Below are positions 10,632 to 60,160 of a stretch of 64,000 nt of DNA, one piece after another. The position numbers were made by a program, and so were the translations under genes. The notes beneath the pieces are model-generated. The model saw only the letters and a list, made by a program, of their open reading frames with translations. It did no database searches and was not told where the DNA came from. How positions within the stretch are numbered: position 1 is the stretch's first letter; every line of letters starts with the position of its first letter. The DNA is from a phage: the NCBI GenBank assembly GCA_026066175.1, contig GCA_026066175.1_4721.1; one strand, written 5' to 3'.

Positions 10632-10663
10632 CCCTCCTCCTTCCCTGATGGGTTGGAGGAGGG
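10632..10663. terminator. bidirectional terminator hairpin between convergent genes
   Basis: 9-bp stem CCCTCCTCC / GGAGGAGGG with a 14-nt loop; near-identical to the hairpin at 60128-60160. Confidence 0.5.
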
Positions 10664-10668
10664 TTATG

Positions 10669-12822
10669 TTACTCTGCGGTTTCTTTTTTCGGTTGGTAGC
10701 TTGCAGCGATATCTTGGGCTAACAGTGTGTTGTTTTTATTCGAAATGAAAATACCGTAACTTTCCATTAATGCGTAATACGAGCGAACGAGTGTAGAAAT
10801 CAATCGACGAATATCCATACCTTGGATGAAAATATCGGGAAGCCCAGAGGCTTCGATCACCGGTAATGGTATCGTTAAATTGCTTATCGTTTTCTTATCG
10901 TTACGTACAATCCAATCACGGAAACGTTGTTGTAACCCTTTATCCTCCCAGGAATCAATCCAATCATTAAGAAGCGTTTTGTTCTTCGTTGCCAATGGTA
11001 CACGAACCCCAACATAAGGCGGTTCAGGGCAATGGCCGTACGATTGCGCAAACACCTCTTCCCACATGTCGTACGACTGCTTGGTAACCGCAACATGGGG
11101 TTTTACTTTAACGCGTGTTAAGAAATCAGGATCGCCGCGTTTCATCGATTCCACGATTTCGTTTTCTAACGCGATGATATCATCAAGTACCAATCTGATA
11201 CTGATCTTCTCGTTACGTAACAGTTTATCCATGATACCGCACATCATGCGCTCAACACGTTGTACGATCATTTTTGGTGCTGATGCGTCACGCATAACGG
11301 GACCTTTCAATTCCAGTTTCGGCGGATTGATTGGAACCCCTTCACGCATGGTCATGTAACCGTAATAGTTTTTACCCATTGAAGTCAACGACAGAATCAA
11401 GAACATATACTCGTTCTTCATTTCCATCACGTACATATGCTCTTTCGCGACGCCGATATTACCCGAACACATTGCCATCAGATGAACCGTAATCTGCGTA
11501 ACCAGGTAGATAAGCGTATTCGCTAAGCGCGTTGAAATCGGATTGATCTCCATGTTGCCAAACCGCCACTGAACCCACTCCTGACAGGTAAATACCGTTG
11601 AGTCGGTATCAGACAACACACCCACTTCACGGATGGCTGACGGAAACGCATAAACACCAGCGGGTTGGTTCTCGGTACGCCAGAACGCCATAATCAGGTC
11701 AGCGTAACTCTGGATACGCTGCAACATTAACTTTGTCGTGGCTGCGGTGAGACGATAACCCAGTTCGTTGCCTTTTTCTAACGCAACGTAAATCGCTTCA
11801 CCATTTAAGAACTCGGTACACTGTGCTGTAATCCAGGCAACCGTGTTATTATCCATGGATGCAATAATGGCTTTCGCCTCTTCCATCGTTTCAACAGGTT
11901 CGGTGGCCAATTCACATAACGAATCAAGGAACCCACGAACAAACTCAGGGTTCAGTTCGCGTAACGAATACAAGTTGTTGCTATACATGTAACAAGCACG
12001 TTCCAACGGCGTTAAGCCGTTAATCAACTCCTGAATGACCAGTTCTTTTTCCGGGTCGAAAATATAGCGATGCAGGCATTTTGATACATTAGCCCAAACC
12101 TCTTCCGGTGTCGGGTAATGTAGCTGGTATTTTACCATCACCTGCTCAATGGCTTTACGGTCGCTGTTACGGACAATGCTTACGATATTTTCAATCGCGA
12201 TATCACAATCGTAATAATGAAAATTACCTGCCAGGAACCGTTCGTTATTCGCATTCGCTGAACCGGAAGCGCATCGGCATGTCGTGGTTAAACTCGGGTG
12301 TGCGATCGGGTTATAAAAAGGATTGAATTTAGATGCCTGTGTTCCCGACAAACTGTTGTTGTCTAACTTGGTATTGGTCTGTCGTTTATCATGCAGTTCC
12401 GCTTCGTCTTTACGTCCATGCGCTTGTGCAATAGACATCTGTTTCTTTTGTTTCTTACGCAGCTTACCGTTTTCAACCGCAAAGTCGCTTAACACGCTGG
12501 AACGTGTTTCACGTGGATAACAGTTCGCCCATACCGGGGTAATGATTAAATTATTTTCTTTGATATCGTTGATATACTGACTGAACTTAATAAGTTCTTT
12601 TTCGCGGTTCCCTTCTGTACGTTGTGTTAAAACAAGACAGTCGGGATCGACCATCCCATGTGCACCACCTGGCTTGATGGTATCAAGTACGAACCGTAAT
12701 GCTTCTTGTTGAGAAATACCACGCATGCGCATTAAGAACAGGGTATAATCCTGCACCGCTTCTTTGGTCATATCCAACGTACGACCGTATCCGTTTTCGT
12801 CGTAAAAGAACGGATTTTCCAT
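10669..12822 (-). CDS. large hypothetical protein with polymerase-like motifs (possible divergent family-B-type DNA polymerase domain)
   Basis: 717-aa ORF, GGAGG SD. Motifs in family-B order: YSNNLYSL (motif A-like), KLMLQRIQSYA (motif B-like), VLSDTDSTVF (YGDTDS-like motif C), GKNYY (KxY-like). Weak; no Walker motif. Confidence 0.35.
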   Translation of the reverse strand: MENPFFYDENGYGRTLDMTKEAVQDYTLFLMRMRGISQQEALRFVLDTIKPGGAHGMVDPDCLVLTQRTEGNREKELIKFSQYINDIKENNLIITPVWANCYPRETRSSVLSDFAVENGKLRKKQKKQMSIAQAHGRKDEAELHDKRQTNTKLDNNSLSGTQASKFNPFYNPIAHPSLTTTCRCASGSANANNERFLAGNFHYYDCDIAIENIVSIVRNSDRKAIEQVMVKYQLHYPTPEEVWANVSKCLHRYIFDPEKELVIQELINGLTPLERACYMYSNNLYSLRELNPEFVRGFLDSLCELATEPVETMEEAKAIIASMDNNTVAWITAQCTEFLNGEAIYVALEKGNELGYRLTAATTKLMLQRIQSYADLIMAFWRTENQPAGVYAFPSAIREVGVLSDTDSTVFTCQEWVQWRFGNMEINPISTRLANTLIYLVTQITVHLMAMCSGNIGVAKEHMYVMEMKNEYMFLILSLTSMGKNYYGYMTMREGVPINPPKLELKGPVMRDASAPKMIVQRVERMMCGIMDKLLRNEKISIRLVLDDIIALENEIVESMKRGDPDFLTRVKVKPHVAVTKQSYDMWEEVFAQSYGHCPEPPYVGVRVPLATKNKTLLNDWIDSWEDKGLQQRFRDWIVRNDKKTISNLTIPLPVIEASGLPDIFIQGMDIRRLISTLVRSYYALMESYGIFISNKNNTLLAQDIAASYQPKKETAE

Positions 12823-12882
12823 AAACCCTCCAAAAGTCGTGTAGCCTATCTACATCATCTCGTATATCTGTTAAAAAAGAAA

Positions 12883-12925
12883 GACGGCATAAAAAAGAAC
12901 CGATCCAGCCGAAGCCAGATCGGTT
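12883..12925 (-). terminator. rho-independent terminator plus conserved TTTATGCCGTC motif
   Basis: Minus strand reads AACCGATCTGGCTTCGGCTGGATCGGTT hairpin (8-bp stem), then CTTTTTTATGCCGTCTTTCTTTTTT, about 65 nt upstream of ATG 12822. Confidence 0.55.
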
Positions 12926-13131
12926 GAAAGGATATTAATAACAGGGAAATGAAAGTGTGACTGAAAGATATCGATGATGTTCGTGAAATAAGATCTCTCG
13001 TATACAGTGATGCCAGATCAGAGGGAGGTTGTAAACGAGAGACGGTTCACTAAAGGAGTAACAAACGCGAACCTATCTTATTTCACCGATGGCGCTAACC
13101 ACTCAAAATATATAGTGCTGTATGTAAAAGT

Positions 13132-13545
13132 TTACTGATTAATCAAGTCGTTAGCAACGATCTTGGTGTAGCCTGCTTGATTAAGAATCTGATTAATTTT
13201 TGTTACATCTGTCGCATCATCAATAACGATGCTGGGTTTATAAATCAACGTCTTGGTAACAACGATCGTACTCTCCTTAATCCAGGGAATCCCTAGGATC
13301 ACATACTCGCCATCAGCGGTGATGACCTCAACGTAGTTATATTTCGTTGGATCATTCGGAACGCTAGACGGAAGCCGGGAATAGATCTGCTGATGGATAG
13401 CGTCAACATCACGGCCGTTACGTACAGCGGTACGGTAGTTGTATACCGCACTAATTTCCACTCCGTTGAAGTTAACCCCAAGTTCTGAGGCGTACACATC
13501 AAAACTCACAACAGAGCCAATCTTTTCTAAATCAGAAGCTGGCAT
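13132..13545 (-). CDS. hypothetical protein
   Basis: 137-aa ORF at the head of a run of small, tightly packed minus-strand genes. Confidence 0.45.
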   Translation of the reverse strand: MPASDLEKIGSVVSFDVYASELGVNFNGVEISAVYNYRTAVRNGRDVDAIHQQIYSRLPSSVPNDPTKYNYVEVITADGEYVILGIPWIKESTIVVTKTLIYKPSIVIDDATDVTKINQILNQAGYTKIVANDLINQ

Positions 13546-13556
13546 AATAGCATCCT

Positions 13557-13955
13557 TTATTCAAAAATGTATTCGTATCCGAACGTTGTCGCTGACCAAA
13601 CTCGGATAGATGATAATGTTCCGCCACGATAAAACGTTTTTGTAAATTCCATATCCTGGACAACACGATAATAAACACGTGCGATGATACGTACAACGAG
13701 ATTTCGTGATAACGATCTCTCTTCGCAGTATTCGTCGATAAAGTCATCGTCGATATCCGATAAGACAACATCTGCGATTTCTTGCAGGAGATTCCTCATC
13801 AGCATCTGCTTTCCTTCGATACCCCATCCCGACAAACAGTAATCGTCTTCTGCCTGACTGTAGATGTCATAGACCGCCTGTTCAAGCAGTTGCTCAAGAT
13901 AGTGATCATCGCGTTTTATAACATGGCGACGGCGCTCAGAGGCGTATTTTTCCAT
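13557..13955 (-). CDS. hypothetical protein
   Basis: 132-aa ORF; short overlap with the upstream gene. Confidence 0.45.
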   Translation of the reverse strand: MEKYASERRRHVIKRDDHYLEQLLEQAVYDIYSQAEDDYCLSGWGIEGKQMLMRNLLQEIADVVLSDIDDDFIDEYCEERSLSRNLVVRIIARVYYRVVQDMEFTKTFYRGGTLSSIRVWSATTFGYEYIFE

Positions 13956-14398
13956 CCTGTGTTTCTCTTGTTAGGCGTATGTATTAACGACGCCACCGTC
14001 TTTTCTGGATCATCCCATAATGCGCGACGAAAACTGGACACCACCATAACGGTAGGATAGATCTGTACAACCTCCCAACCGTAACGATGTGCATTCGTCG
14101 TGCGCCCAACATTGAACAAACACAATTGATTCAAGAAACAGAGCTGCATCTTCGTAAACAATAGCGTGTCTTCACGTTTCACGTAACCGAGGATATAGGC
14201 GTTCTCGAACGCTTCACGTGCTAAGACAGGACGGTTAAGATAACGTAGCGACAACACCAACAACGCGGTGATACGCAACGGATCTTCGGGTCCTTTTAAA
14301 TCATTCAGCTCATTCTGCAACCAATCCGGAATCGCCACCGTTAGGCGATAGGTGTCTGTTCCACGATCAACCACATTTAATGTTGAAAAAGGCAACAT
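13916..14398 (-). CDS. hypothetical protein
   Basis: 160-aa ORF; short overlap with neighbours. Confidence 0.45.
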   Translation of the reverse strand: MLPFSTLNVVDRGTDTYRLTVAIPDWLQNELNDLKGPEDPLRITALLVLSLRYLNRPVLAREAFENAYILGYVKREDTLLFTKMQLCFLNQLCLFNVGRTTNAHRYGWEVVQIYPTVMVVSSFRRALWDDPEKTVASLIHTPNKRNTGWKNTPLSAVAML

Positions 14399-14879
14399 AC
14401 CCGTGAATTCCTTCTAACTCGAGGTCGTTCTCGTCGGTTTTCGGTAAAAGTCCGTTAGCTGTCAGCATCCTTGTCATCGCGCCATCGAAGCACGGGAAGA
14501 TAAGGTTAATAGTTTCATTAATCGCATCAACGTAGCTATACACCGCTTCGAAGTAATCGCCGTCATGATCGATACTCACCAGATCCTGGCATAGGTCTTC
14601 AGCAATCGTTTCATATACCGGCGGATACCACGAATGAAACGGTCGCTGCATACGTAACGACCAATACTCATACGTCGTATACTGAAGCACGTCATAGGCT
14701 GATACGTTAATGCGGTCAAAGAAAGCATACGTGTCCATGTGTTGGTACAACATCGCCAACACGGTTTCCAAACACACAGCTATCCGCACGCCATCATCTT
14801 TCCCGTTAAGGAAATTCGGTTTCTGCCGGTAACGCACGAATGCCGATGGCCTTGATTGTACTATTCCACCACCAACCAT
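14367..14879 (-). CDS. hypothetical protein (start trimmed to internal ATG)
   Basis: N-terminal 37 codons of tracked ORF 14367..14990 overlap the upstream gene and look non-protein-like; start moved to M38. Confidence 0.4.
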   Translation of the reverse strand: MVGGGIVQSRPSAFVRYRQKPNFLNGKDDGVRIAVCLETVLAMLYQHMDTYAFFDRINVSAYDVLQYTTYEYWSLRMQRPFHSWYPPVYETIAEDLCQDLVSIDHDGDYFEAVYSYVDAINETINLIFPCFDGAMTRMLTANGLLPKTDENDLELEGIHGYVAFFNIKCG

Positions 14880-15346
14880 AATGTCATACTCGTATCTAAC
14901 GTGAAATTGAAATGCCACCAATCTTCCACGCGTGGAATCCAGGTGCGGAGGATCTGATGAACCTCGCTTCGCATCACGGACAACCGACAACGGAAATCAA
15001 ACTTCTCATCACGACCATAGTCTTCATGCAGGAAAACCTCATCCAAAACAAACTCAAGTTGTGTATCGACATCACGACCCGAGATATTTCGTTTGTACAG
15101 ATACAGTTCGATCGTGTCATAAAGCAACGTATGGATATCGTAATTGCCATTCGGTGAGAAATAAGGTAAGCGTTCATCGAACATCAAAAACAGATATTCA
15201 CTGTAGTTTAAGAACGGGATGATGTACCGACGTCCTGTCTGTGGTGCGCGAATATGTATCGAAACCTGACCTGGACGCGGAATCGCCGACGGTTTAGCAT
15301 CGTCTCTCTGAAATTGCTCTAAAGATCGCAACAAAGGTGGCCGCAT
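14861..15346 (-). CDS. hypothetical protein (start uncertain)
   Basis: Tracked ORF 14861..15418; start trimmed to M25 to limit overlap with the upstream ORF. Confidence 0.35.
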   Translation of the reverse strand: MRPPLLRSLEQFQRDDAKPSAIPRPGQVSIHIRAPQTGRRYIIPFLNYSEYLFLMFDERLPYFSPNGNYDIHTLLYDTIELYLYKRNISGRDVDTQLEFVLDEVFLHEDYGRDEKFDFRCRLSVMRSEVHQILRTWIPRVEDWWHFNFTLDTSMTLWLVVE

Positions 15347-15725
15347 TGTAACTCTCCAACGCCCAATTGTAAGGCCCTTCCAACATGTGTTCCCATACGT
15401 GAATAAACTCACTACCAAAAACCGGTTCTAACGTCATCGTAAGATGCGTAAGTTCAGAAGCTGCAGCGTGATACGCGTCCACGTGTCTTTCCATCGAAGG
15501 TTCGTCTTCGTTGAAAATACGCTCGGTATCACCAGCACGTTCAATAAGTTCGGTAATGAGATCGATCCAAGTTTCGTGGCATGTCAGTGTTTCCTGTTCT
15601 CGACTTTGTATGCCGATGTCTGCGTGTACGCTGGACTCGAACCGGTCGAAAAGGACCCGAAGAACGTGCACCTTGTCGATGTATTTCACCGTTATCCAGG
15701 AAAGCGGTTGCCATCGACTCAACAT
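15294..15725 (-). CDS. hypothetical protein (start uncertain; long overlap with 15541..16518)
   Basis: Tracked ORF 15294..15923; the first ~60 codons are N/P-rich and look like out-of-frame translation. No convincing SD for any candidate ATG. Confidence 0.3.
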   Translation of the reverse strand: MLSRWQPLSWITVKYIDKVHVLRVLFDRFESSVHADIGIQSREQETLTCHETWIDLITELIERAGDTERIFNEDEPSMERHVDAYHAAASELTHLTMTLEPVFGSEFIHVWEHMLEGPYNWALESYNAATFVAIFRAISERRC

Positions 15726-16518
15726 CCATCCGGTGCTCGGGAACCCCAAACTCATATAGTACGGGTTGCACGGGGCCAAGGACGGAACGGCGTTGTTTGT
15801 AGCGTTCCTTAACGGCGAGGCCTTGTTTGACATAAATGGGTTCATTGGCGAGTTCTGCGGCTTTTCGTTTTGCGTGGGCCAATCGAAGTTCTTCCAATTG
15901 TCCAAGCCATTCAAATTGTTCATCTGTTAGCTCCTGGGGACGTTCAACAACCACGCCCGATGGGCAGACATTGATCGTAATGTTAATTGATGGCATCGCC
16001 ATCACTCGAGGATTACTATTACGTACACGGATAACATGTTCGGTTGCTGATTTACGATCAACGCAATATTCTGTCTCCTGAAACTCAAATGCTTTTAACG
16101 GTGCTGGTTTTGTTTGACGTTTTGGAACACGGCCAAGATCAACAATATAGGCATAATCGCACACACGTTCTATTCCGTAAATACGGTTATCCGACCAATT
16201 CTTACCAAACAGCTTGTTGTGATGATAAGACAAATATTCGGTTACCATACCCTGGACAACATCGAAGTCTTCTCGAAATTCAGGTTGGTACCAAATCGGG
16301 CCGAGAATATCTGCGAACGATTCATGACGATAGCGGCAATCATGCCGTGTCCAGGTCATCCTCTGATTAAGATCGAAATCAACCAGCAACTCAGTTAATT
16401 GCAGTTTTGCCTTCGGAGAAAGCTGGCGTTGATGATGCAAACTCAGGCAATCGATAAGCGGTAACGAAACCCACGACGCTAACGTATACAAATCGATCCT
16501 GGCTAATCTCTTGGTCAT
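15541..16518 (-). CDS. hypothetical protein (C-terminal ~40 aa Arg-rich, possibly read-through or frameshift)
   Basis: 325-aa ORF; protein-like to about residue 285, then an Arg-rich tail that overlaps the next ORF in another frame. Confidence 0.4.
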   Translation of the reverse strand: MTKRLARIDLYTLASWVSLPLIDCLSLHHQRQLSPKAKLQLTELLVDFDLNQRMTWTRHDCRYRHESFADILGPIWYQPEFREDFDVVQGMVTEYLSYHHNKLFGKNWSDNRIYGIERVCDYAYIVDLGRVPKRQTKPAPLKAFEFQETEYCVDRKSATEHVIRVRNSNPRVMAMPSINITINVCPSGVVVERPQELTDEQFEWLGQLEELRLAHAKRKAAELANEPIYVKQGLAVKERYKQRRSVLGPVQPVLYEFGVPEHRMDVESMATAFLDNGEIHRQGARSSGPFRPVRVQRTRRHRHTKSRTGNTDMPRNLDRSHYRTY

Positions 16519-16609
16519 ACTCTTTTCCTAAGTCCCCATTGTTTATACACACGATATCTGGGAATAGTTAAAATATACGGCGTAAAACGAAACAGGAGAG
16601 TTTCTCGCG

Positions 16610-16930
16610 TTATTTTCTTCCTCTTTTGATACAACCGATACCCCTCTCATTTAAAGCCTCCCAGGCGCGGTTTATTTCATCTTCGGTTGCTCGCGTATCT
16701 CGCGGAACCACCATCACGCAGTCTTCTATCGGCCAATGCGTAGGACGAGGAGCAGCAAATAAATCGTCCCATTCAAACGTCCATTTCTTCTTCGAACGGT
16801 TATAGTAAAGTGTGAGGTACGTACGCGTATACGCTGGGTAGCCTTGTAACACGGCGAAGTCTTTTCGATCTTGATGTGCTTGATTCCATTCGTTAAAACG
16901 GTTTCTTATTCTTGTCCACCATTTTCCCAT
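16610..16930 (-). CDS. hypothetical protein
   Basis: 106-aa ORF. Confidence 0.45.
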   Translation of the reverse strand: MGKWWTRIRNRFNEWNQAHQDRKDFAVLQGYPAYTRTYLTLYYNRSKKKWTFEWDDLFAAPRPTHWPIEDCVMVVPRDTRATEDEINRAWEALNERGIGCIKRGRK

Positions 16931-16987
16931 AAACTCTCCTACACGGCATAAAAGCCTGCCCCGAAGGACAGGCTCATCATGATACTT

Positions 16988-17185
16988 TTAACCTTCCATC
17001 TTCAATGAGGGATGGTTGACGATATGTGCATGTTTGGTTGGGTCATACGACTGATAAGGGAAATAGCCATGCCATTGACGGCCTTGACATTTCGTACACA
17101 GGAACTGACCATCACGGCGTTGATGCTCGTATGCCAATTCAGTGCTATCAACGTGACCGCAACGTTCGCAGATAAACAGCGACAT
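16988..17185 (-). CDS. small zinc-ribbon protein
   Basis: 65 aa with CERCGH...CTKCQG (two CxxC pairs); sits immediately downstream of the tubulin-like gene. Confidence 0.45.
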   Translation of the reverse strand: MSLFICERCGHVDSTELAYEHQRRDGQFLCTKCQGRQWHGYFPYQSYDPTKHAHIVNHPSLKMEG

Positions 17186-17201
17186 AGCGCATCTCCATGA
17201 A

Positions 17202-18182
17202 TTAGAAAAGCAAGAAACCGCTGTTCTTCGCTTCCGCTACGGTTTCATCACCCACCTTCGGTGCTTGTTGACGTGCGTTACGATGTTCAACAAAACGTTT
17301 TGCTTCGTCCGCGATTTGTTTGATAATACCCCCTAAACGATCGGTGCTTAATACGAACGATGTCGCTTCACGAATCGGGCTGCTTTCCGGCACAAAACCA
17401 TCACAGCTATAAATAGCATTAACACCCATGACTTTTGTTGCATCTTTCGGATACAACGTACAGAAAGCAATCGGGCTATCATGCTCTTTGGTCCACTCGT
17501 ATCCCATGAACGTGTTCAATTCGGTGATGGTCGGTTCCAAACCGGTAACACGAGGATGGTTTAAGAAGTTCTCCAGATCAGCGCTATCCAAGCGACGGTT
17601 CTCACCAGAGAACAACACACAGAGTTGGCTGATAACGATCTGGACATCCAGGTTAACGTCTTGCTCCGATTTCCCGTTTTCGCCATTCATGTGGTAGCTG
17701 ACAATCACAGGACGTTTCAACCCTTCTGCGGCTGCCATCAGTCCTTTGAACGTACGGTCAGCATTGATGGTCTGACGTTCATCGTCGAAGGAGGCAACGA
17801 TACAACAGACGACACGCTCACCGCGTTCCAGCAGGTTAGCGACCAGCGCAGGGCCTGCAACGGAACCCGAACCACCGCTTAAGCTGAAGACGACGATGTT
17901 GAATTTACCTGGCGTATGCTTATTAAGAATACCTGGGATTTGTGAGCAGATCAGTTCAGCATTCTCATCGCGTTTCTTACCGGAACCATCAAGCTCGCGG
18001 CCTGCTGCATCTTTAAAGATGTAAATGTGATCATCGTCCAGTGCGCTATCACGTAGGTTAGCACGGCTGGTATCAACATACGTCATGCTGTGTAATCCTT
18101 TCGCGACTTCGCCTTCAAATGCTGAGCCGATTTCGCCGCCACAACCACCAACCGCCCAAATATGTACTTGGTTCTCTTGCAT
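17202..18182 (-). CDS. phuZ: phage tubulin/FtsZ-like GTPase (PhuZ-like)
   Basis: 326 aa. N-terminal IWAVGGCGGEIG (tubulin/FtsZ T1 loop, cf. GVGGGGGNA) and FSLSGGSGSVAGP (tubulin signature GGGTGSG equivalent). Size typical of jumbo-phage PhuZ. Confidence 0.75.
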   Translation of the reverse strand: MQENQVHIWAVGGCGGEIGSAFEGEVAKGLHSMTYVDTSRANLRDSALDDDHIYIFKDAAGRELDGSGKKRDENAELICSQIPGILNKHTPGKFNIVVFSLSGGSGSVAGPALVANLLERGERVVCCIVASFDDERQTINADRTFKGLMAAAEGLKRPVIVSYHMNGENGKSEQDVNLDVQIVISQLCVLFSGENRRLDSADLENFLNHPRVTGLEPTITELNTFMGYEWTKEHDSPIAFCTLYPKDATKVMGVNAIYSCDGFVPESSPIREATSFVLSTDRLGGIIKQIADEAKRFVEHRNARQQAPKVGDETVAEAKNSGFLLF

Positions 18183-18246
18183 GTGAACTCCTAACTTGAT
18201 ATGTATTTAACGCACAATGAATCTTTCTTTACTAAAGGGGTGACCC

Positions 18247-19089
18247 ATGGGTGCTATTGACTACAGTGTCGATCGTATCTGCCGTACAATACCGGCAGAT
18301 ATTCTACAGTATTGCTATATCGATCGTTACGATTGGCGTAACCGCTATCCGCGTTCCGTTGAAGATATCATTACCGATTGGGTAATCCGTAAACGGGTTA
18401 TCGGAGACATCGATATCTACGGGGGGCTACAGACCGTTATTCCTCTTGATGATGCAGGCGTTACGATTGAAGAAGTCACCATTAACTGTTATGTTTTCCA
18501 TATTCCGCTGGAAGCGACACAAGGACGTTATATCACGTCAGCCTTGTCGATTATCTCTGGGAGCGTGAATAACTACGGAATCAACTATAACGGTCAATGG
18601 GGGGCGTTCAACCAAACCCAGTTCCAACGACAGCTTTGCGGATGGAACCCCGCAAGCAACGCATTGCAACAAGGGATGAATGCATTCGGTCCGGTGAACA
18701 TCCTCAGTACTGCTAACGTTGACATCATCGCACCTAACACCATCATGGTGAACAACGTCACACCGGTTCAATTCCCGTTGAGCTTACGCTGTTTCCTTGC
18801 CCATGATCCAGAACTAACCAACCTCAGCATGGAAGTCTGGAACGACTTTTACAAGCTCTGTTTATACGCCACACAAAGTGACATCTATAACAGAACCGTT
18901 ATTCGTCTCGATCGTGGTGTTACCGCACAAGGTCAAGAAGTCGGTGCATTCAAGGAATACATCGATCGCTTCGCTGATGCGGAAAACACCTACCAGGAAT
19001 TCCTGAACGAGACGTGGGCAGGCGTTGCTGCATGGAACGACCCACAAACGAAACGTCGGGCAATACGTCTGCAAACCGGTTACTTCTGA
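18247..19089 (+). CDS. hypothetical protein
   Basis: 280-aa ORF, AAAGGGG SD; lone plus-strand gene followed by a hairpin at about 19099-19128. Confidence 0.5.
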   Translation: MGAIDYSVDRICRTIPADILQYCYIDRYDWRNRYPRSVEDIITDWVIRKRVIGDIDIYGGLQTVIPLDDAGVTIEEVTINCYVFHIPLEATQGRYITSALSIISGSVNNYGINYNGQWGAFNQTQFQRQLCGWNPASNALQQGMNAFGPVNILSTANVDIIAPNTIMVNNVTPVQFPLSLRCFLAHDPELTNLSMEVWNDFYKLCLYATQSDIYNRTVIRLDRGVTAQGQEVGAFKEYIDRFADAENTYQEFLNETWAGVAAWNDPQTKRRAIRLQTGYF

Positions 19090-19590
19090 TTATCTGTGGT
19101 TCCCTCCCTCGGCGAGTTCGAGGGAGGTCTCAACAAAGCCAGCAGCAACACCACTCGCCGATATCTGTAAGGTATCGTTGAAGATAAGATCGTCAGGTAA
19201 ACAATCGAAGTAAATACCATATTGCGTGTTTGTCGTATTAATGATCAATGACGGCGTCGGTCGCGTTTTCTTAATGTCGGTGATATACAAACGTAAGAAC
19301 GTTTCACCGTCTTCGCTATCCGTAAAACGATACGCGTTACCAGAAAACTCGACACGTGGCGTAACGATAAACTGCACGCGATCGTCAGCCGGATGGATAT
19401 TTAGCCACCGTGCGATATCATCTGTGTTCACGTTGTGCATACTCAGCACGGTATACGCAAACAACGTAGCATGATGTTTGGAATAATGCAGTACATAAGC
19501 CGCATCTTTCTTTTTGTGAACCCCTTCAACGTATTCTATTGTCGTGTAGCCTGATTTATAAAGCTTTACTTGCGGTTTCTCATTCATCAT
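19090..19590 (-). CDS. hypothetical protein (start at internal ATG giving ATGA overlap)
   Basis: Tracked ORF 19090..19671; M28 start forms an ATGA overlap with the stop of the upstream gene. Confidence 0.4.
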   Translation of the reverse strand: MMNEKPQVKLYKSGYTTIEYVEGVHKKKDAAYVLHYSKHHATLFAYTVLSMHNVNTDDIARWLNIHPADDRVQFIVTPRVEFSGNAYRFTDSEDGETFLRLYITDIKKTRPTPSLIINTTNTQYGIYFDCLPDDLIFNDTLQISASGVAAGFVETSLELAEGGNHR

Positions 19591-19886
19591 AACAACCCTT
19601 CCCGTTTCATCGCAGAACGCATACTTGCGTAAAGCGCATTCTTCATTGCACCTGGACGTAACGGATAACAAATCTCATATCGACGTCCTTGTTTTACAGC
19701 GATCTTCCTTCCATTCAAAAACAACGTTCCATTATCCAGCAAGAGCTCACCTTGCAATACCATGAGCCCTGCCTTAACATGCCGTCCTTCTTCTTTGGTT
19801 AACACTTTGTAGCCGTGTTTATCCAATAACCACAACTCGTAAATACCGTGCGCAGCCTTCGGTGTTACTTTCTTTTTCGTCGTCAT
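19587..19886 (-). CDS. hypothetical protein
   Basis: 99-aa ORF. Confidence 0.4.
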   Translation of the reverse strand: MTTKKKVTPKAAHGIYELWLLDKHGYKVLTKEEGRHVKAGLMVLQGELLLDNGTLFLNGRKIAVKQGRRYEICYPLRPGAMKNALYASMRSAMKREGLL

Positions 19887-19898
19887 GATCGATACTCC

Positions 19899-20279
19899 TT
19901 AAACTCCTTGTCGGATCATCACCAACCGGAGCATATTGTATTCCAACGTGGCGCTTTCTAATTCGAATTCATATCGATACCAGAAATTCGGCTCCAATTG
20001 GTTTACAATACAACAACGCACCTCCGTTTGCACCTTCCTTGACAGCTCACGTAAGAAACGGGTTACCTCCGGTTTGAAGTAGTGCGCCAAACCTAACCGA
20101 TCGGAATAAAACAGGCCGCTGTCATTCGCAGCCTGCAGGATAACATATTCGACCATCAGATGACGTACATTCGGTTCAGGTACCGACGAACATAACGCAA
20201 GATCCAACACATCAACGATCGGACCAACGTACACGGCAGCACGGTATTCACGAATAACATCAACGTTATCCATGGCCAC
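19899..20279 (-). CDS. hypothetical protein
   Basis: 126-aa ORF. Confidence 0.45.
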   Translation of the reverse strand: MAMDNVDVIREYRAAVYVGPIVDVLDLALCSSVPEPNVRHLMVEYVILQAANDSGLFYSDRLGLAHYFKPEVTRFLRELSRKVQTEVRCCIVNQLEPNFWYRYEFELESATLEYNMLRLVMIRQGV

Positions 20280-24000: not shown

Positions 24001-24057
24001 CCATTTCGCGATGATATGACAGTCTTTATTACGTTTACCATCTGAGGGAGCATGCTC

Positions 24058-25296: not shown

Positions 25297-25435
25297 AGTT
25301 TTACTGCTGTTGGTTATTATTTGAAGCATAGGGCTTCACCCAGGAGTACCATCCCTTTAAGCCATTTGTCCTCTCCTGGTTAACTGTCGTTCTCTCACAG
25401 TGCTCGACAGACCAAAAATGCTCAGGCCCCATAGT

Positions 25436-25464
25436 CCTCCTCTGGGAATGGAACCCAGAGGAGG
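25436..25464. terminator. bidirectional terminator hairpin
   Basis: 11-bp stem CCTCCTCTGGG / CCCAGAGGAGG with loop AATGGAA, between convergent genes. Confidence 0.5.
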
Positions 25465-25484
25465 CTATGTTTATTATGCTGTCT

Positions 25485-28107: not shown

Positions 28108-28122
28108 ATAAACTCCTCCGAT

Positions 28123-28143
28123 GGAGGGTGCCGAGCACCCTCC
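28123..28143 (-). terminator. hairpin in the TerL 5' leader / terminator of the upstream gene
   Basis: 9-bp stem GGAGGGTGC / GCACCCTCC with loop CGA, directly upstream of the TerL SD. Confidence 0.4.
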
Positions 28144-28157
28144 ATCGTTGTATTACC

Positions 28158-36600: not shown

Positions 36601-36615
36601 AGGATTATGGTTTAT

Positions 36616-39179: not shown

Positions 39180-39225
39180 GACGGCATAAAAAGTACCTCC
39201 TCACCCACAAGGGGCAAGGAGGTTC
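39180..39225 (-). promoter_or_regulatory. hairpin plus TTTATGCCGTC motif
   Basis: Minus strand ACCTCCTTGCCCCTTGTGGGTGAGGAGGT hairpin followed by ACTTTTTATGCCGTCTTTTG, about 100 nt upstream of ATG 39086. Confidence 0.45.
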
Positions 39226-43411: not shown

Positions 43412-43471
43412 TCACTTTTCCTTTACCACGTTCAGCGAAATAAATGAGCAGGGGCATAACGCCCCTTGCTC

Positions 43472-46273: not shown

Positions 46274-49200
46274 ACCATCCGTTTTCTCGTCGTAGGGTTT
46301 CGTTTCACCGTATACAGACACAATGTTTGCGTTAGGTGCGAGGTAAGCAGAAATACCTACGTCCCCACTATCCTTCGTACCTTCGGATACAACACCAATG
46401 TCCGACTTGTCGTACTCACGATCGCGTGCGCGTCGAAGCGATGTTTTCGAACGACCCCCGATACCGGTCATCGTTGCTTCTTCACCCTGCTTGATATCCA
46501 GCATCGGGTTGGTTTCATCGATGACGATAGAAGCACTGTCGTCAAGGATTTGGTTCCAAACGCTCACCGGACTGATTGAGATCTTCTGTCGGTTGCCTTG
46601 GCTGCTGTTCTCGTTTTGACGAATAGCACCAACCAGATCCTTATACACCAACTCAGCGAACTTATCGTACGTTTTGAAGCGCTGGTAGTTCACGTCGTTC
46701 GTGTTAGGTGCCCAATCGTCCAGAAGCAGTTCAACCGCACGTAATAACAACATGGCGAAATCAGTCGGTTCGCCCATGTTCTGTAATAACGTACGACTTA
46801 CCGGGTCGACGAAAAGACGCTCCATGAGTTCAAGTTCGCGAAGATGACGAACCTTAAGACCTGCACCATCGACAACGTTAAAATAGATATCCCGATTGTC
46901 GAAAGCACCTCGAGCGTAACCAATGTAGTTACGGTATTCGTTGAATCCGCCTAACAACAATGTCGTCATTCGATCATCTTTACTGAAGATCAAACTTTCA
47001 TCGTCGAAGCTCACCGCGAATTCATCCGATGCTAATCCCATACGAGAACCACGAGGTACCGTACGGTAGTTCGCTTTAAGATGTTCTAATAACGGTGTAA
47101 GACCACCTAAGTAACTTAACACAACACCAACCGGAATACGTACGCCCATGAACTCAAGGTCAGCGGCTTCGATGGGCATCTTCGCGGCATTGATACCGAA
47201 GAAATCAGGGAACGTTCCAACCGGCGTTGGGGTTTGATTCGGTTCGTAAACGTATAACTGATTCTGACCATCCACCGCCAGGAATTCGCCGTTGGTGTTT
47301 TTGGCGAACGTTAAGAATCCACCCGCCAGCTGTTCGGTGAATAAATCTTCACCGATGTGTTCCGGCAACGTTTTGATATCGAGGCGTATGTCCCAATCCG
47401 CAAATTGGATTTGGGTGTAGTTACGTGCAAGCACCGCGAAGTAATACGGAACTTTGACAGACGGATCAAAGACGTTACCACGTTTTAAGGTGGTTAAGGG
47501 CGAGGTTTTATCGTAATACATCGCTGTGAGTTGACGTGTTAACCAACGACCAGCATTATTAACCACGCGTTCTGAACGCTTAACGAACACCTTACCGTAG
47601 GCGGTACTCAACGCAACTTCGGATGACGATACCTTTCTGATTGGTTTATCGACACGTTGTTTACGCATTCGATATTTAATGCCGTTAACGACATAAATGC
47701 CGTCCTTACGAACCTTCGGTAACATCACCGGGAACGTGGTCGGAACACCGCCTACCGGAGCCAGCTTGATCGTGATGACCTGGTAATCACCCATCACGTC
47801 AACAACATCTTCAACTTTATATCCGGTAACAGGATAGCCCGCTTGCTGCACCGCCACAACGGCTGCTGCGATGTCCTTTTGCATGACATGTTCGACGTAG
47901 TGTTTATCCCATACGGCAAGCGTCGATTTGCACAAGCTCTTATCAACGATAACGTCCGCTTCCGGCATCACCTTCTCAGGTGCTAATTTCGCGGCTTTTG
48001 GTTTAACCTCAACGTATTCAGCAAGCGTGAGTCCAGAACCGTCAGGTGCTTCAATTTCATGAATCGCGTCAGCGTTACGCATCGCTGCTTTATATTGAAC
48101 GCCGCTTAATTGACCAGCATCCGCGAGGTCGCTTGCACGTACCAGCACTGCATCGGATAACGACTGAATATATTCACCGTGCGTTTTCGGTAACGTTGCC
48201 GCATCGAAGACATCAACTTTTTCTTCCGGCATGTCATCGTTGACAACCTCAAAGAGATCATCGGTGATGTCTTGATCTTCGTCCGGTTGAAAATCGGGCT
48301 GAACTTCAACGCCAGGGACTTCACGAACATCTTCAAACGCACGTTCAACAACCGCGTTCCATGCTTCAGCGTCGTCATCTTCATCCGATCCTCCGATCAA
48401 CTCGCTTTCCAGTTCATCGGGGTCAAGAACGGTATCAAGGTCCTCACCGTTAGGAAGCACGACATCACGTTCATCGTACTCCGCATCGGGACTGTCTGCG
48501 AGAATATCACGCTCTTGACGAAGAACCTGCTCCTCTTCTTGTTTCTGTTCTTCTTCATTGGCGCTCTGCGACCACAGACGGGTTACCGCCATCATCCAAC
48601 GACGCTGGAACGTTTCAAGCGTTGTCTTATCAAGTTCCTCGCCTTCCTTCGCTAAACCCGAACGCCATTCTTCCATTAAACCAAGATTCAGAGTAAAGAA
48701 ATAGACGCCGTCCGTAAATACAACGTTAAGCTTATCCAGCGAAGCACGGTCCAATGATACCATCGTGCTGTTCTCACGATCGACACCTAACCAACGGAAG
48801 AAGTCAAAGAACGACAGCTCCTCGGAGGTGGCAAAATTCATGAGGTTATTACGGGTTGGGGCTTGTTGTGTCGTACGCATCAACGATATCTTCGGTAACG
48901 TCGACGGGATACGGAATAACAAGAACTGCTGACGGTCGCTTTGTTGGGCGATCTCGTTTGCTTGCGTCCAAATCGTTTTACGCACGTTGAACCATTCATC
49001 ATACCAACGGGTCAGTGTCGGACGATAGATGTACATGTGGTTAAGATGCGCATAGTTAGCCACGATCTGGGCGTTGATGTTCTTCTCAACCTTGCTAAGA
49101 TCGGTGACCAAACGAAAACGACGATGCGATGCACGGTAATCCAGTTTCGCACGCGGTAGCTGGAATCGCTGATCGCGTCGAGGTGCGCCTTGCTTGGTTG

Positions 49201-49423
49201 CAAGATCATCCGCGAATGATATCCAAAGCTGGGCGCTTTCTTTGCTCAGCATGTATTCGTTTTCAGGAGGACCGATTAACGAAGGATCGGTTGCTGTATA
49301 ATGATAAACCGCATAACGCGGCAGCTGCAAAAGCTGCACCAAACGCAATCTAGGTGATAATAACTCTTGATAACGTCGTACACCGAATTGTCTGTAGTAA
49401 TCAAGGTATTTAAGTTTTGCCAT
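46214..49423 (-). CDS. RNAP beta subunit, N-terminal segment (virion-RNAP-like set); last ~20 codons may be intronic read-through
   Basis: 1069 aa. C-terminal TGIGGRSKTSLRRARDREYD...EGTKDSGDVGISAYLAPNANIVSVYGETKPY matches beta LGPGGLTRERAGFEVRDVH...[30 protein letters not shown]. Start is translationally coupled to the upstream beta-prime gene. Confidence 0.6.
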   Translation of the reverse strand: MAKLKYLDYYRQFGVRRYQELLSPRLRLVQLLQLPRYAVYHYTATDPSLIGPPENEYMLSKESAQLWISFADDLATKQGAPRRDQRFQLPRAKLDYRASHRRFRLVTDLSKVEKNINAQIVANYAHLNHMYIYRPTLTRWYDEWFNVRKTIWTQANEIAQQSDRQQFLLFRIPSTLPKISLMRTTQQAPTRNNLMNFATSEELSFFDFFRWLGVDRENSTMVSLDRASLDKLNVVFTDGVYFFTLNLGLMEEWRSGLAKEGEELDKTTLETFQRRWMMAVTRLWSQSANEEEQKQEEEQVLRQERDILADSPDAEYDERDVVLPNGEDLDTVLDPDELESELIGGSDEDDDAEAWNAVVERAFEDVREVPGVEVQPDFQPDEDQDITDDLFEVVNDDMPEEKVDVFDAATLPKTHGEYIQSLSDAVLVRASDLADAGQLSGVQYKAAMRNADAIHEIEAPDGSGLTLAEYVEVKPKAAKLAPEKVMPEADVIVDKSLCKSTLAVWDKHYVEHVMQKDIAAAVVAVQQAGYPVTGYKVEDVVDVMGDYQVITIKLAPVGGVPTTFPVMLPKVRKDGIYVVNGIKYRMRKQRVDKPIRKVSSSEVALSTAYGKVFVKRSERVVNNAGRWLTRQLTAMYYDKTSPLTTLKRGNVFDPSVKVPYYFAVLARNYTQIQFADWDIRLDIKTLPEHIGEDLFTEQLAGGFLTFAKNTNGEFLAVDGQNQLYVYEPNQTPTPVGTFPDFFGINAAKMPIEAADLEFMGVRIPVGVVLSYLGGLTPLLEHLKANYRTVPRGSRMGLASDEFAVSFDDESLIFSKDDRMTTLLLGGFNEYRNYIGYARGAFDNRDIYFNVVDGAGLKVRHLRELELMERLFVDPVSRTLLQNMGEPTDFAMLLLRAVELLLDDWAPNTNDVNYQRFKTYDKFAELVYKDLVGAIRQNENSSQGNRQKISISPVSVWNQILDDSASIVIDETNPMLDIKQGEEATMTGIGGRSKTSLRRARDREYDKSDIGVVSEGTKDSGDVGISAYLAPNANIVSVYGETKPYDEKTDGSSSIMSTSALAVPAADRDD

Positions 49424-57924: not shown

Positions 57925-57947
57925 GTTCGGGGTGGGGAATCCCCACC
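57925..57947 (+). terminator. hairpin after the giant gene (terminator/attenuator)
   Basis: 9-bp stem GGGGTGGGG / CCCCACCCC with loop AAT; only a short T-tract follows, then the SD of the next gene. Confidence 0.35.
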
Positions 57948-57968
57948 CCCCTTCTTGAGGAATGGTAC

Positions 57969-60110
57969 ATGGGTATTCTTGTTCAAAACGCCCTCATCAC
58001 AAAACAAGCCTTTTTATTACCCGGTGACAGCAGCACGCTTAGTGCTGACATGATTAAAGCGAGACATACACCCTATTCCTACGATAACGTCGATGATACA
58101 ACACTGGGTGGGAACTGGGTACTTAACCCGCCACCGCAATATACGAAATTTGCTGATATCAAAGAACGACGGCGTGCAGTTATGCCTGGATCAACAGGTA
58201 TGGGACGTGGGTACAGTGAAAGCATCAACAGCTTTAAAGAAGTTGTTACATTACGATTCGGTAAACCACGTTTTACAGGTGCGAGTATCTTCTTTACTGA
58301 TTTCTACGACGCCGATGTTGCGGTCACCGTGAAAACCGGTCGTGACCCAGGTATTCTTTATTACGCCGCCAAAGCGTATACCACCGTGCTTTCTTATCTC
58401 ACACCGTTACCTTATATCTACATGCTGGGTCGTATCGGCCGATACTTCATGGGCAAACCAACCAGTCAGTACTACTATCAAGTACCGACCATGCATGTAT
58501 ACTGGTCCTCGTTCCAGACGTTGGTTAACCAAGCAGCAATAAACATGGGTATCGTTGCGGGGATGGGTAAGGACAAAGGGTATGTCGAGGAAGGCGGTAC
58601 CGTACTCCACCAATTCTCGATTGGTGGTCAGGATGTTGAAGAATTCATCAACTACGCTTCTAAAACGCTCCCAGGCATTTATAAGAAAGGCGGTGGGATC
58701 GATATCTATCAAATTGCAACACGTCGCCAACGCATACAGAACGCATGGGTTCGACGTATTCAATCCATGATGGAGAACGATTACGCGTCTTACGAGGAAT
58801 TCTGGAACGATCTTGATAAACGACTCGATAGCGGAGCATTTCCATCGGACGTTACCGGCCGTACGCTAACACAGTACCTTGCTGATACACAGAAGTCTGC
58901 CGTTTACAGTGCTGCAGCAGGTGATAACAAACAGACGATGGACGACCTGTTATTCGGCAGGGCTTCCTACAGCAACAAAGATGCTGATGCTAACTTCAAT
59001 ATCTCTGCTGCCACCTCCGACGGCGGTACGTCAGCACAAAGTCAGGGTACGACAGCTAACGTCGGTAATTCAACATCGGGGACAACGCAAGCTTCAACCG
59101 CAGCATCAACGGCTGGAGGTGCGAACGTACAGAGCAAAGGCATCGGGCAAACGAATGCGGCTGAAGAAGCGACGTTCCTTGATCTGATGGATGCCGAACT
59201 GGCCGATGGTGCTCAGTTTATCAGTTTTCGGGTCGATTCTGTAACCAGTGTAACCGAAACATTCTCAAACAGCGCTTCGGAAAGTTCAATCGCACAAACG
59301 ATGAACAGCAAAGCGCAGGCGAACATCGAACGACGTTTTACGTTGTCTGGCGGTCAAACCGGCTGGGCTATGCTGGACGCGGCGATAAAGGGTGTGTCGG
59401 ATACCATCAACGGTGCTATTTCAGGAATGGGTTTGGATGGTATCTTTGGTGCCTTCATGGGTTCTGGCTTCGCAGACATTCCAAAGTTCTATTCTGGGTC
59501 ATCGGTAAGCCTTCCACGTGCAGATCTGACAATGGAATTACGTTCCTGGAGTGGAGATCGTTGGTCGATCTTTACGAACCTCATGGTACCGCTTTTAGCG
59601 ATCCTTGCAGGCGGTTTACCGCAGTCTACCGGTAAATCGTCTTACGGGATGCCATTCATGTGCGAGTGTTATATTCCTGGTAAGGTCCAGATTAAAATGG
59701 GTCTTATTGATAATATCACAGTTACACGCCATGTCGGGAACGTGCCGTCAACACGTGAACGCTTACCGTTAGGTATTGATGTCAGTTTCAGTGTGTATGA
59801 CCTGTCGTCGATCGTTGCAATGCCGATCACCACCACAGCAGCATCATTAGCAAAATTGGATCCTCGTGGCTTCTTAAGTGATCTTCTTGCTGATGATACG
59901 CCGCTGAACAACTATCTTGCTGTGTTATCGGCGTTGACGCTTACCGAACAGGTTTACATGATCCCAGATTTAAGTCGTCGTATGCATAAGACCATGGCTG
60001 ATATCGATAGTTTCTGGAGCAAAGGTAATTTTGCTAACTGGTTATCGGACACCATGCCTGGCAGGATAGCATCAGGGCTGTTATGGAAACGTACCGAACG
60101 ACCGTTCTGA
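57969..60110 (+). CDS. hypothetical virion-associated protein
   Basis: 713 aa, GAGG SD. Ser/Thr/Gly-rich linker and a Gly-rich hydrophobic segment (GAISGMGLDGIFGAFMGSGF); co-transcribed with the giant lysin-domain gene. Confidence 0.5.
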   Translation: MGILVQNALITKQAFLLPGDSSTLSADMIKARHTPYSYDNVDDTTLGGNWVLNPPPQYTKFADIKERRRAVMPGSTGMGRGYSESINSFKEVVTLRFGKPRFTGASIFFTDFYDADVAVTVKTGRDPGILYYAAKAYTTVLSYLTPLPYIYMLGRIGRYFMGKPTSQYYYQVPTMHVYWSSFQTLVNQAAINMGIVAGMGKDKGYVEEGGTVLHQFSIGGQDVEEFINYASKTLPGIYKKGGGIDIYQIATRRQRIQNAWVRRIQSMMENDYASYEEFWNDLDKRLDSGAFPSDVTGRTLTQYLADTQKSAVYSAAAGDNKQTMDDLLFGRASYSNKDADANFNISAATSDGGTSAQSQGTTANVGNSTSGTTQASTAASTAGGANVQSKGIGQTNAAEEATFLDLMDAELADGAQFISFRVDSVTSVTETFSNSASESSIAQTMNSKAQANIERRFTLSGGQTGWAMLDAAIKGVSDTINGAISGMGLDGIFGAFMGSGFADIPKFYSGSSVSLPRADLTMELRSWSGDRWSIFTNLMVPLLAILAGGLPQSTGKSSYGMPFMCECYIPGKVQIKMGLIDNITVTRHVGNVPSTRERLPLGIDVSFSVYDLSSIVAMPITTTAASLAKLDPRGFLSDLLADDTPLNNYLAVLSALTLTEQVYMIPDLSRRMHKTMADIDSFWSKGNFANWLSDTMPGRIASGLLWKRTERPF

Positions 60111-60127
60111 TATTCGCTGCATAGAGC

Positions 60128-60160
60128 CCTCCTCCTTCCCTTCCGGGTTGGAGGAGGGCT
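60128..60160. terminator. bidirectional terminator hairpin (same repeat family as 10632-10663)
   Basis: Stem GCCCTCCTCC / GGAGGAGGGC with loop TTCCCTTCCGGGTT. Confidence 0.5.

Follow-up and report, generated by a model that had tools for sequence, protein, structure and literature searches.

Judging from sequence, the CCTCC…GGAGG hairpins at gene ends in a 64,000-nt stretch of phage DNA (GenBank assembly GCA_026066175.1, contig GCA_026066175.1_4721.1; the whole stretch is termed the window) are very probably the Goslar-lineage form of a known terminator signal of chimalliviruses, namely a hairpin followed by TTATG. We regard them as such because the asymmetry of the arms, the tail, and the position are common to the terminators of the phages phiKZ and 201phi2-1. 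The finding is real and largely already known. New here are the long two-tier stem with its conserved 2x2 UU/AA internal loop, the compensatory changes that keep the asymmetry of the arms, the repeated flipping of the hairpin core, and one nested insertion.

The window is closely related to Escherichia phage vB_EcoM_Goslar, a nucleus-forming jumbo phage (chimallivirus). Positions 9000-13000 are 87.7% identical to Goslar and other stretches are collinear at ~80-93% identity, including the genes encoding the nuclear shell protein, PhuZ tubulin, DNA polymerase, terminase, tail sheath, and several split beta subunits of RNA polymerase (RNAP). The gene order relative to Goslar is conserved across the junctions compared. 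The closest relative found, nearer than Goslar, is the metagenome contig JACXXQ010000003.1 (locus L048; 208,844 bp), which is 98.0% identical to window positions 9478-17094 over the 7.6 kb compared.

Three symmetric hairpins and their tails

The sequence-only reading of this DNA had noticed two almost identical hairpins at 10632-10663 and 60128-60160, and a close relative at 36566-36600. On re-reading, the first two have identical arms and different loops (TGAT and TTCC), the second being placed at 60127-60158, while the relative spans 36568-36605 with related arms. The three hairpins, the open reading frames (ORFs) flanking them, and their tails are as follows.

10632 to 10663, convergent junction of a gp245-like gene and the DNA polymerase gene: CCCTCCTCCTTCCC-TGAT-GGGTTGGAGGAGGG
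9535 to 10629 (+ strand) and 10669 to 12822 (- strand), convergent ORFs flanking the 10632 hairpin
10664 to 10672, + strand: tail TTATGTTAC directly 3' of the stem, fitting the TTATKYY part of the phiKZ consensus
10621 to 10631, - strand: tail GGATTATACAC with a TTATA core, the same hairpin being read in reverse
36568 to 36605, convergent junction of a gp217-like virion protein gene and a gp216-like gene: ATCCTCCTTCCC-(CGGCCTGATGGCTA)-GGGAAGGAGGAT
35656 to 36546 (+ strand) and 36616 to 37155 (- strand), convergent ORFs flanking the 36568 hairpin
Tails of the 36568 hairpin: TTATGGTTT on the + strand and GTAATATGTTTTTTTTTT on the - strand
60127 to 60158, convergent junction of gp203-like and gp202-like genes: CCCTCCTCCTTCCC-TTCC-GGGTTGGAGGAGGG, the stem being extendable to 60124-60161
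57969 to 60110 (+ strand) and 60165 to 61283 (- strand), convergent ORFs flanking the 60127 hairpin
60159 to 60168, + strand, and 60115 to 60126, - strand: tails CTTATGTTAA and CTCTATGCAGCG, respectively, of the 60127 hairpin

The 10632 hairpin occupies nearly the whole of the 39-nt gap between two stop codons, and the element is present at the same junction in two metagenomic loci (L048 and L033). Its 9-bp lower stem (CCCTCCTCC/GGAGGAGGG) is followed by a 2x2 TT/TT internal loop, a CCC/GGG upper stem, and the TGAT loop. This architecture (9-bp lower stem, 2x2 U·U internal loop that is A·A on the other strand, CCC/GGG tier, and 4-nt loop) is shared with the 60127 hairpin, of which the TTCC loop reads GGAA, a GNRA loop, on the - strand and the flanks are CATAGAG and CTTATG. 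In the 36568 hairpin, a 12-bp stem formed by ATCCTCCTTCCC and GGGAAGGAGGAT encloses an inner GGCC-TGAT-GGCT stem. With up to 2 mismatches allowed, the window has 5 copies of the 14-mer of the arm, where shuffles lead one to expect 0.08.

A calculation of RNA folding energy, which the sequence-only reading had proposed as a check, returned a single dominant hairpin for either strand as RNA. The energies ranged from -25 to -32.5 kcal/mol with z of -4.4 to -6.9, and none of 200 shuffles was as stable on either strand. Individually, the values were -26.9 (+) and -25.0 (-) kcal/mol with z of about -4.4 for the 10632 hairpin, -32.5 and -29.9 kcal/mol with z of -6.9 and -5.2 for the 60127 hairpin, and -30.8 and -30.7 kcal/mol for the 36568 hairpin.

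All three hairpins are symmetric in the sense that the stem sits between CATA and TATG. On the + strand the tails read TTATGTTAC, CTTATGTTAA, and (T)TATGGTTT, so that TTATGTT follows the 10632 and 60127 hairpins and TTATGG follows the 36568 hairpin. Second TAT-containing tails are found on the - strand (GATTATAC, CTCTATGC, and GTAATATGT10, respectively), the last ending in a run of ten T after GTAATATG.

The whole window and the whole Goslar genome were folded and the strong hairpins were listed. Among the intergenic hairpins with dG of -18 or below, TTAT lay within 0-4 nt of the stem in 24 of the 48 Goslar hairpins and 5 of the 11 window hairpins, in contrast to 3 of 52 and 0 of 14, respectively, for hairpins in coding regions (background, 2.7% per tail). 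The consensus of the tail is T-TATG-(C/T)(C/T)-G-T, and the tail positions left unconstrained by the search matched the phiKZ consensus (G in 64% and T in 61%). The exact TTATGCCGT occurs 7 times in the window, 5 of them directly after intergenic hairpins on the - strand (at 4364, 12898, 16952, 39195, and 61271). A flexible scan for a terminal hairpin followed by TTAT[GT]YY gave 15 matches in the window, against 4.9±2.1 in dinucleotide shuffles, and 54 in Goslar. The TTATG(YYGT) tail, which the sequence-only reading had missed, is the most diagnostic sequence feature of the family.

The tail is also oriented with respect to the genes. At the co-directional junctions of the window and Goslar, 23 hairpins bear the tail on the sense strand only and 4 on the antisense strand only (binomial p=3e-4), the gene context being taken from a greedy longest-ORF caller (~93% coding) that labels some junctions wrongly, e.g., Goslar 156156, which is really convergent. 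At the convergent junctions of the two genomes, 15 of 21 hairpins have at least one tail. For the two genomes together, the hairpins begin a median of 16 nt past the upstream stop codon. Such orientation and spacing are what is expected for a direction-dependent gene-end signal. The sequence-only reading had placed the hairpins at convergent gene junctions; this holds for the three hairpins above, which are of the bidirectional type, and not for the family, as co-directional members were found at 4364, 12898, 16952, 37607, 39195, and 61271.

Agreement with the terminators of phiKZ and 201phi2-1

The sequence-only reading regarded the hairpins as terminators, and this idea gained from the comparison with two phages in which transcript ends have been mapped: the motif around the 3' ends of phiKZ and 201phi2-1 transcripts, the position after stop codons, and the tail on the transcribed strand all match. 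Using ONT-cappable-seq, 133 termination regions were found in phiKZ, of which 61 share 5'-BCCYCCCCHWWDGGGRRGGBYTTATKYYGT-3', i.e., a pyrimidine-then-purine hairpin plus TTAT, and 6 terminators are bidirectional and lie between convergent genes (Putzeys et al., 2024; PMC10914365). The majority of the intrinsic terminators predicted by ARNold were those of phiKZ, and most of the predicted ones among its termination regions have this motif (PMC10914365). In 201phi2-1, a strongly similar motif A (n=59) was found, with elongated hairpins where motifs combine, together with 15 bidirectional sites, and 8 of its terminators worked when assayed in vivo (Poppeliers et al., 2024; PMC11512511). In the phiKZ sequence itself, we read CATAG-GCCCTCCC-TTCG-GGGAGGGC-TTTATGTTGT after the major head gene, as well as symmetric CATAA…TTATG versions.

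The phage studied here is, like phiKZ (Phikzvirus) and 201phi2-1 (Serwervirus), a chimallivirus with its own multisubunit RNAPs (vRNAP and nvRNAP genes). The hairpins of all three share a CCYCC-type 5' arm, a GGRGG-type 3' arm, a short loop, T-TATG-YY-G-T directly after the stem, a position just past stop codons, and the symmetric CATA…TATG arrangement between convergent genes. In contrast to the ~7-bp stem of phiKZ, the main copies in the window pair at 12-14 positions arranged as two tiers (9 bp, then a conserved 2x2 UU or AA loop, and CCC/GGG), and, unlike in phiKZ and 201phi2-1, several copies have fully identical arms. Canonical Rho-independent terminators resemble the hairpins in combining a GC-rich hairpin with an A/U-rich stretch after genes and in being bidirectional at convergent genes. 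They differ in three respects: the hairpins here have no U-tract but only a weak UUAU followed by a conserved G-Y-Y-G-U, the two strands show a strong pyrimidine/purine asymmetry, and the polymerase is presumed to be a non-canonical phage enzyme. Several family members are marked as putative transcriptional terminators in the Goslar record (ARNold-based features), although the counterparts of the three hairpins are not among its terminator features. Rfam gave no match at the hairpins, the sole matches in the window being group I introns.

We infer termination in this phage by homology, and several observations weigh against doing so. The fixed-length 30-nt consensus of phiKZ (~7-bp stem and 4-nt loop), allowing up to 5 mismatches, found nothing in the window, as opposed to 3 short-stem matches in Goslar and 11 in 50 kb of phiKZ; with about twice the length, the window stems depart from this consensus in geometry, not in design. 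The classical U-tract (at least 5 U among the 8 nt right after the stem) is absent from the tails UUAUGUUA, CUUAUGUU, and UAUGGUUU, and a simple terminator consensus scan of positions 1-20000 did not list the 10632 hairpin. The in vivo assay of the 201phi2-1 terminators ran on the host polymerase, not on phage enzymes (PMC11512511). The 3' ends from ONT-cappable-seq alone do not separate termination from exonucleolytic trimming back to a stable hairpin, and our search of the literature found no transcript-end mapping for this phage or Goslar.

Under the terminator reading, the nascent RNA would fold into a very stable hairpin with a pyrimidine-rich 5' arm (CCYCC) and a purine-rich 3' arm (GGRGG), immediately followed by U-UAUG-YY-G-U. 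The hairpin would form just behind a short and weak UUAU stretch of the RNA:DNA hybrid, and the phage RNAPs, presumably the enzymes that respond to the signal, would release the transcript a few nucleotides downstream, into the tail. The hairpin would then stay at the 3' end of the mRNA, the end presumably formed in this way, and probably shield it from 3' exonucleases. At convergent gene pairs, the symmetric …CATAW-hairpin-WTATG… would allow one hairpin to stop transcription in both directions and limit antisense read-through.

The contribution of the tail may go further. The beta-like subunit GP123 of the phiKZ nvRNAP binds TATG on the non-template strand at late promoters (PMC4666361; PMC12809450). 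The conserved tail, at ~9 nt, approximates the length of the RNA:DNA hybrid and contains TATG, the word of the late promoters, and therefore may act, speculatively, as a polymerase-specific pause signal. That T-TATG-YY-G-T is a sequence-specific stop or pause word for the non-canonical RNAP of the phage, not a degenerate U-tract, is an idea we hold to be doubtful, and such a word could be read by the beta-lobe pocket with which the beta-like subunit (GP123 in phiKZ) holds TATG at late promoters. If true, termination in chimalliviruses would need both a hairpin and a promoter-like DNA word, and the terminators would be specific to the phage polymerase.

The same TATG raises the alternative that the elements are composite terminator-promoter cassettes, in which the TATG after the hairpin is an nvRNAP late promoter core and transcription starts at its G. 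The late promoters of phiKZ are indeed 5'-TATG-3' with +1 at G, each position being required in vitro (PMC4666361), and at several co-directional junctions, e.g., 16952, 37607, 12898, and 39195, TATG lies 17-95 nt upstream of the next start codon. T4-like phages moreover have composite terminator/promoter repeats, the PeSLs (Arbiol et al., 2010, PMC2839356; Comeau et al., 2014, PMC4122927), which resemble the hairpins here in being short regulatory stem-loop repeats scattered over a large phage genome, with many near-identical copies and a capacity for recombination. PeSLs, however, include an early promoter for host sigma-70 and border gene modules that have been swapped, whereas the elements here have no evident promoter part (27 sigma-70-like sites against 33.6 expected) and the gene order is kept. 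Convergent junctions conserve the tail equally well, and a start there would yield only antisense RNA into the neighboring gene. Initiation at G would also remove the called start codons at 4364 and 61271, which are the ATGs of the tails. In addition, the best-studied late promoter of phiKZ, P119L, has neither a hairpin upstream of TATG nor CYGT after it, and the conserved YYGT extension lies outside the promoter logo (PMC4666361). We thus consider such cassettes unlikely.

Alternatively, the hairpins could be stabilizers or processing sites of RNA 3' ends, the polymerase reading through while the hairpin blocks 3'-to-5' exonucleases or UUAUG marks an endonuclease site. The palindromic REP elements of E. 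coli act as 3'-end stabilizers, the hairpins here are extremely stable and have no U-tract, and long-read mapping of 3' ends is blind to the difference between termination and trimming. Nevertheless, a mere block to exonucleases needs no conserved sequence beyond the stem, whereas TTATGYYGT is kept in Pseudomonas and E. coli phages alike, and eight terminators of 201phi2-1 lowered the expression of a downstream reporter in vivo (PMC11512511). As a replacement for termination this explanation appears quite unlikely; as a role additional to termination, stabilization is probably compatible with it.

Structural conservation, dispersal, and turnover

The sequence-only reading had taken the repeated hairpins to suggest a dispersed repeat family or selection for one structure, and we found grounds for both. 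The genome-wide search that it had proposed as a check detected 15 two-tier members in Goslar, and the base pairs were counted in 16 two-tier hairpins with 4-nt loops (14 of the 15 in Goslar and the 2 in the window). In this set, 99% of the cells were paired, a percentage inflated because the hairpins were chosen for at least 8 of 9 pairs in the lower stem, and slid controls were 49-66% paired. Compensatory double changes were found in 5 of the 12 pairs (21 cells), and the covariation score was reached by none of 500 shuffles. The changes are nearly all from C-G to U-A, and with a single exception the compensatory changes leave the 5' arm C/T and the 3' arm G/A. Thus, the pyrimidine/purine asymmetry of the arms is preserved. 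The invariance of the internal loop and CCC/GGG is uninformative, as both were fixed by the search pattern. On the basis of the compensatory changes, the structure is under selection.

For the distribution beyond Goslar, we searched for the exact 30-mer pattern CCTCCTCCTTCCC-N4-GGGTTGGAGGAGG. IMG/VR gave 15 matches, which fall in just three contigs (183-238 kb), Goslar itself among them, and there were 42 matches in metagenomes, where the long contigs are all of 209-249 kb; the large related contigs carry 4-7 copies each. In contrast, no match was found in 185,579 bacterial and archaeal genomes, and a bacterial origin or a REP-like host element was rejected on this ground. The contigs bearing the 30-mer are taken to be Goslar-like phages, considering their sizes (183-249 kb) and the loci aligning with the window. 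The arms of the 59 copies compared are identical by construction of the pattern. Their loops are TTAC (34), TGAT (7), TGTT (5), TGAC (5), TAAT (3), TTCC (3), and TGCT (2), and their flanks repeat the symmetric …ACAGCATAW / WTATGYY… tails.

One exact copy lies at Goslar 237246-237277 (locus L015, 12098-12127), 30 nt from the right end of the record, and is followed by a run of A, and at the left end (57-99) there is a different strong hairpin preceded by a run of T. Circular permutation has been reported for the Goslar genome, so an intergenic terminator region is the probable point at which the record was opened.

At orthologous junctions, the flanks of the window and Goslar align base for base, and the asymmetric cores (internal loop and end loop) turn over between them. 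The cores are reverse-complemented relative to Goslar in the hairpins at 10632 (Goslar 174262), 36568 (Goslar 200229-200265), and 60127 (Goslar 224384) and in the inner part of that at 37607 (Goslar 201270), and both core orientations were found at at least 5 orthologous junctions among the metagenomic relatives (loci L002-L063). The flips were called from inspected longer flanks and pairwise alignments; an automatic grouping of the 59 copies by shared 7-mers merged some junctions because the flanks carry the shared motif. The flips show that either orientation of the core is tolerated, at least at bidirectional sites. In the non-coding DNA of chloroplasts, small inversions of this type are well known to recur at hairpins.

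The Goslar junction orthologous to that of the 10632 hairpin (Goslar 174247-174314; L001 11643-11710; window 10630-10668) bears a 32-nt hairpin, CATCCTCCCAACCCGTAAGGGAAGGGAGGATG, which is identical to Goslar 4149-4180 and nested in the loop of a decayed copy of the hairpin seen in the window. The nested unit is an insertion or a replacement of one hairpin unit, and apart from it, the junctions keep a hairpin in both the window and Goslar. The positions compared are one-to-one between the two genomes but their contents are flipped, overwritten, or nested, a pattern that fits template switching or conversion between short palindromes. The hairpin units may behave as copy-and-flip cassettes, with identical copies at different junctions, nesting, and inverted cores.

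The identical arms at non-orthologous junctions, the nested unit, and the flipped cores would also be compatible with a selfish or mobile palindromic repeat (REP- or MITE-like) that spreads through intergenic regions and has no role in transcription. Enterobacterial REP/BIME elements are similar in being imperfect palindromes of ~35 nt with internal mismatches, lying at the 3' ends of genes in both orientations and possibly stabilizing the upstream mRNA, whereas the elements here are unrelated in sequence, have no copies in bacterial genomes, and bear a conserved directional tail. The bias of the tail toward the sense strand and the close spacing to stop codons are unexpected for a neutral repeat, and the positions compared stay in place while their content turns over. 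No copy was found in the bacterial and archaeal genomes searched, and duplication of, or gene conversion between, terminators can explain the identical copies. No linked transposase was seen, though no systematic search was made; in Goslar, no transposase of the HUH/RAYT type is annotated, and no dedicated scan of the proteome was made. Taken together, a mobile repeat is very unlikely.

Hardly credible are hairpins for translational control, in which the GGAGG arm would be a ribosome-binding site masked by CCTCC and the ATG would start a small ORF or the next gene: GGAGGAGGGTTATG resembles a strong ribosome-binding site plus a start codon, and the ATG at 4364 and 61271 is the called start of the next gene, but purine-first stems and stems other than GGAGG carry the same tail. 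A small ORF with a masked ribosome-binding site was rejected for the three hairpins at 10632, 36568, and 60127, as the ATGs after them open 18, 3, and 50 codons that are unrelated to one another and antisense to real genes.

Other hairpins and group I introns in the window

Besides the three hairpins, the following members and relatives of the family were found in the window.

4355 to 4390, - strand: unidirectional member ACCCTCCCTGCATAGCGCGGGGAGGGT then TTATGCCGT, -26.5 kcal/mol, 22 nt past the stop codon of 4413 to 5051 (-); the ATG of the tail is the called start of 3522 to 4361 (-)
7339 to 7371, - strand: purine-first GGGAGGGAGG-GCAA-CCTCCCTCCC then TTATACGTC, -23.8 kcal/mol, between the nuclear shell (chimallin) gene and an RNAP beta gene; identical in Goslar
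12884 to 12925, - strand: ordinary GC-rich AACCGATCTGGC-TTCG-GCTGGATCGGTT then CTTTTTTATGCCGT; the Goslar counterpart is annotated as a putative terminator
16943 to 16975, - strand: GAGCCTGTCC-TTCG-GGGCAGGCTT then TTATGCCGT; the Goslar counterpart is annotated as a putative terminator (-18.8)
25430 to 25469, convergent junction: CATAG-(T)CCTCCTCTGGG-loop-CCCAGAGGAGG(C)-CTATG, then TTTATTATGCTGT on the + strand, 133 nt past the stop codon of 24052 to 25296 (+), -28.7 kcal/mol, z of -6.0; conserved in Goslar at 189098
28119 to 28147, - strand: stable purine-first hairpin that separates the terminase gene from a virion protein gene, lacks an adjoining TTAT tail, and precedes a GGAGGAG ribosome-binding site and the terminase ATG
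37598 to 37645, - strand: AACCCCACCG…CGGTGGTGGTT continuing as TTATGTCAAGG; compared with Goslar 201270-201306, its inner part is inverted
39181 to 39223, - strand: ACCTCCTTGCCCC-TTGT-GGGTGAGGAGGT then ACTTTTTATGCCGT; the stem is imperfect in the window and perfect in Goslar at 202853
43435 to 43471, - strand: probable member with a weaker tail, GAGCAAGGGGC-GTTAT-GCCCCTGCTC then ATTTATTTCGC; the Goslar counterpart is annotated as a putative terminator
57929 to 57949, + strand: purine-first GGGGTGGGG-AAT-CCCCACCCC between co-directional + strand genes, without a TTAT tail; two compensatory pair changes relative to Goslar 222186
61262 to 61298, - strand: AGCCTACCCAC-loop-GTGGGTAGGCT then TTATGCCGT, -20.7 kcal/mol, with an identical Goslar counterpart at 225528; 60165 to 61268 (-) has its called start codon in the ATG of the tail

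The sequence-only reading had listed GC-rich stems at 7348-7371, 25436-25464, 28123-28143, and 57925-57947 as sharing one design. All four are present, the last being re-read as 57929-57949, and the single design does not extend to all of them: those at 7348, 28119, and 57929 are purine-first (GGGAGG…CCTCCC), and the latter two have no TTAT tail. The 28119 and 57929 hairpins are not strict members of the same sequence family because they are purine-first and the TTAT tail is missing, and the former is akin to the family in design only.

The tail ATG of TTATGCCGT at 4359-4361 and 61266-61268 on the - strand coincides with the called starts of 3522 to 4361 and 60165 to 61268. At the first of these sites, the same ATG is the start in the Goslar annotation (gp183). 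The purine arm of the hairpin precedes the ATG by only ~3 nt. If the start codons at these sites are not mis-assigned, the terminator also serves as a ribosome-binding region.

Group I introns were found in and near RNAP beta genes. The gene that is continuous in Goslar (gp207; 1448 aa) is split in the window into 46214 to 49423 (aa 1-1069) and 43472 to 44602 (aa 1073-1448) on the - strand. Within the insertion of ~1.6 kb between them (44603-46213), Rfam places a group I intron at 44729-45152 (RF00028; 51.4 bits), and a 403-aa ORF there has weak similarity to the Goslar endonuclease gp206, while the Goslar intron and gp206 located between gp205 and gp207 are missing from the window. Two lower-scoring candidates at 5305-5674 and 5746-6083 on the - strand both lie downstream of the RNAP beta gene 6040 to 7305: the second intron of the window, at 49.1 bits, just below the Rfam gathering score of 50, and a weaker third candidate of 27.9 bits, which overlaps the 3' end of that gene. 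The gene for an HNH endonuclease adjoining the Goslar intron (gp186) is also missing from the window.

The hairpins are of value chiefly as a simple substrate for studying how the non-canonical, sigma-less multisubunit RNAPs of nucleus-forming jumbo phages terminate transcription, and for the annotation of Goslar-like genomes. The hairpin-plus-TTATGYYGT signal is common to Pseudomonas phages and an E. coli phage lineage, in which it takes a longer, two-tier form with several identical copies. It offers a compact and readily mutated element for termination assays in vitro in a tractable host, as well as candidate strong or bidirectional terminators for synthetic biology. As an annotation rule, the motif can mark the ends of operons in the genomes of Goslar-like phages, in which the main copies escape standard terminator finders. 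Finally, the flipping and nesting of the cores provide a small, clear example of turnover in palindromic regulatory sites.

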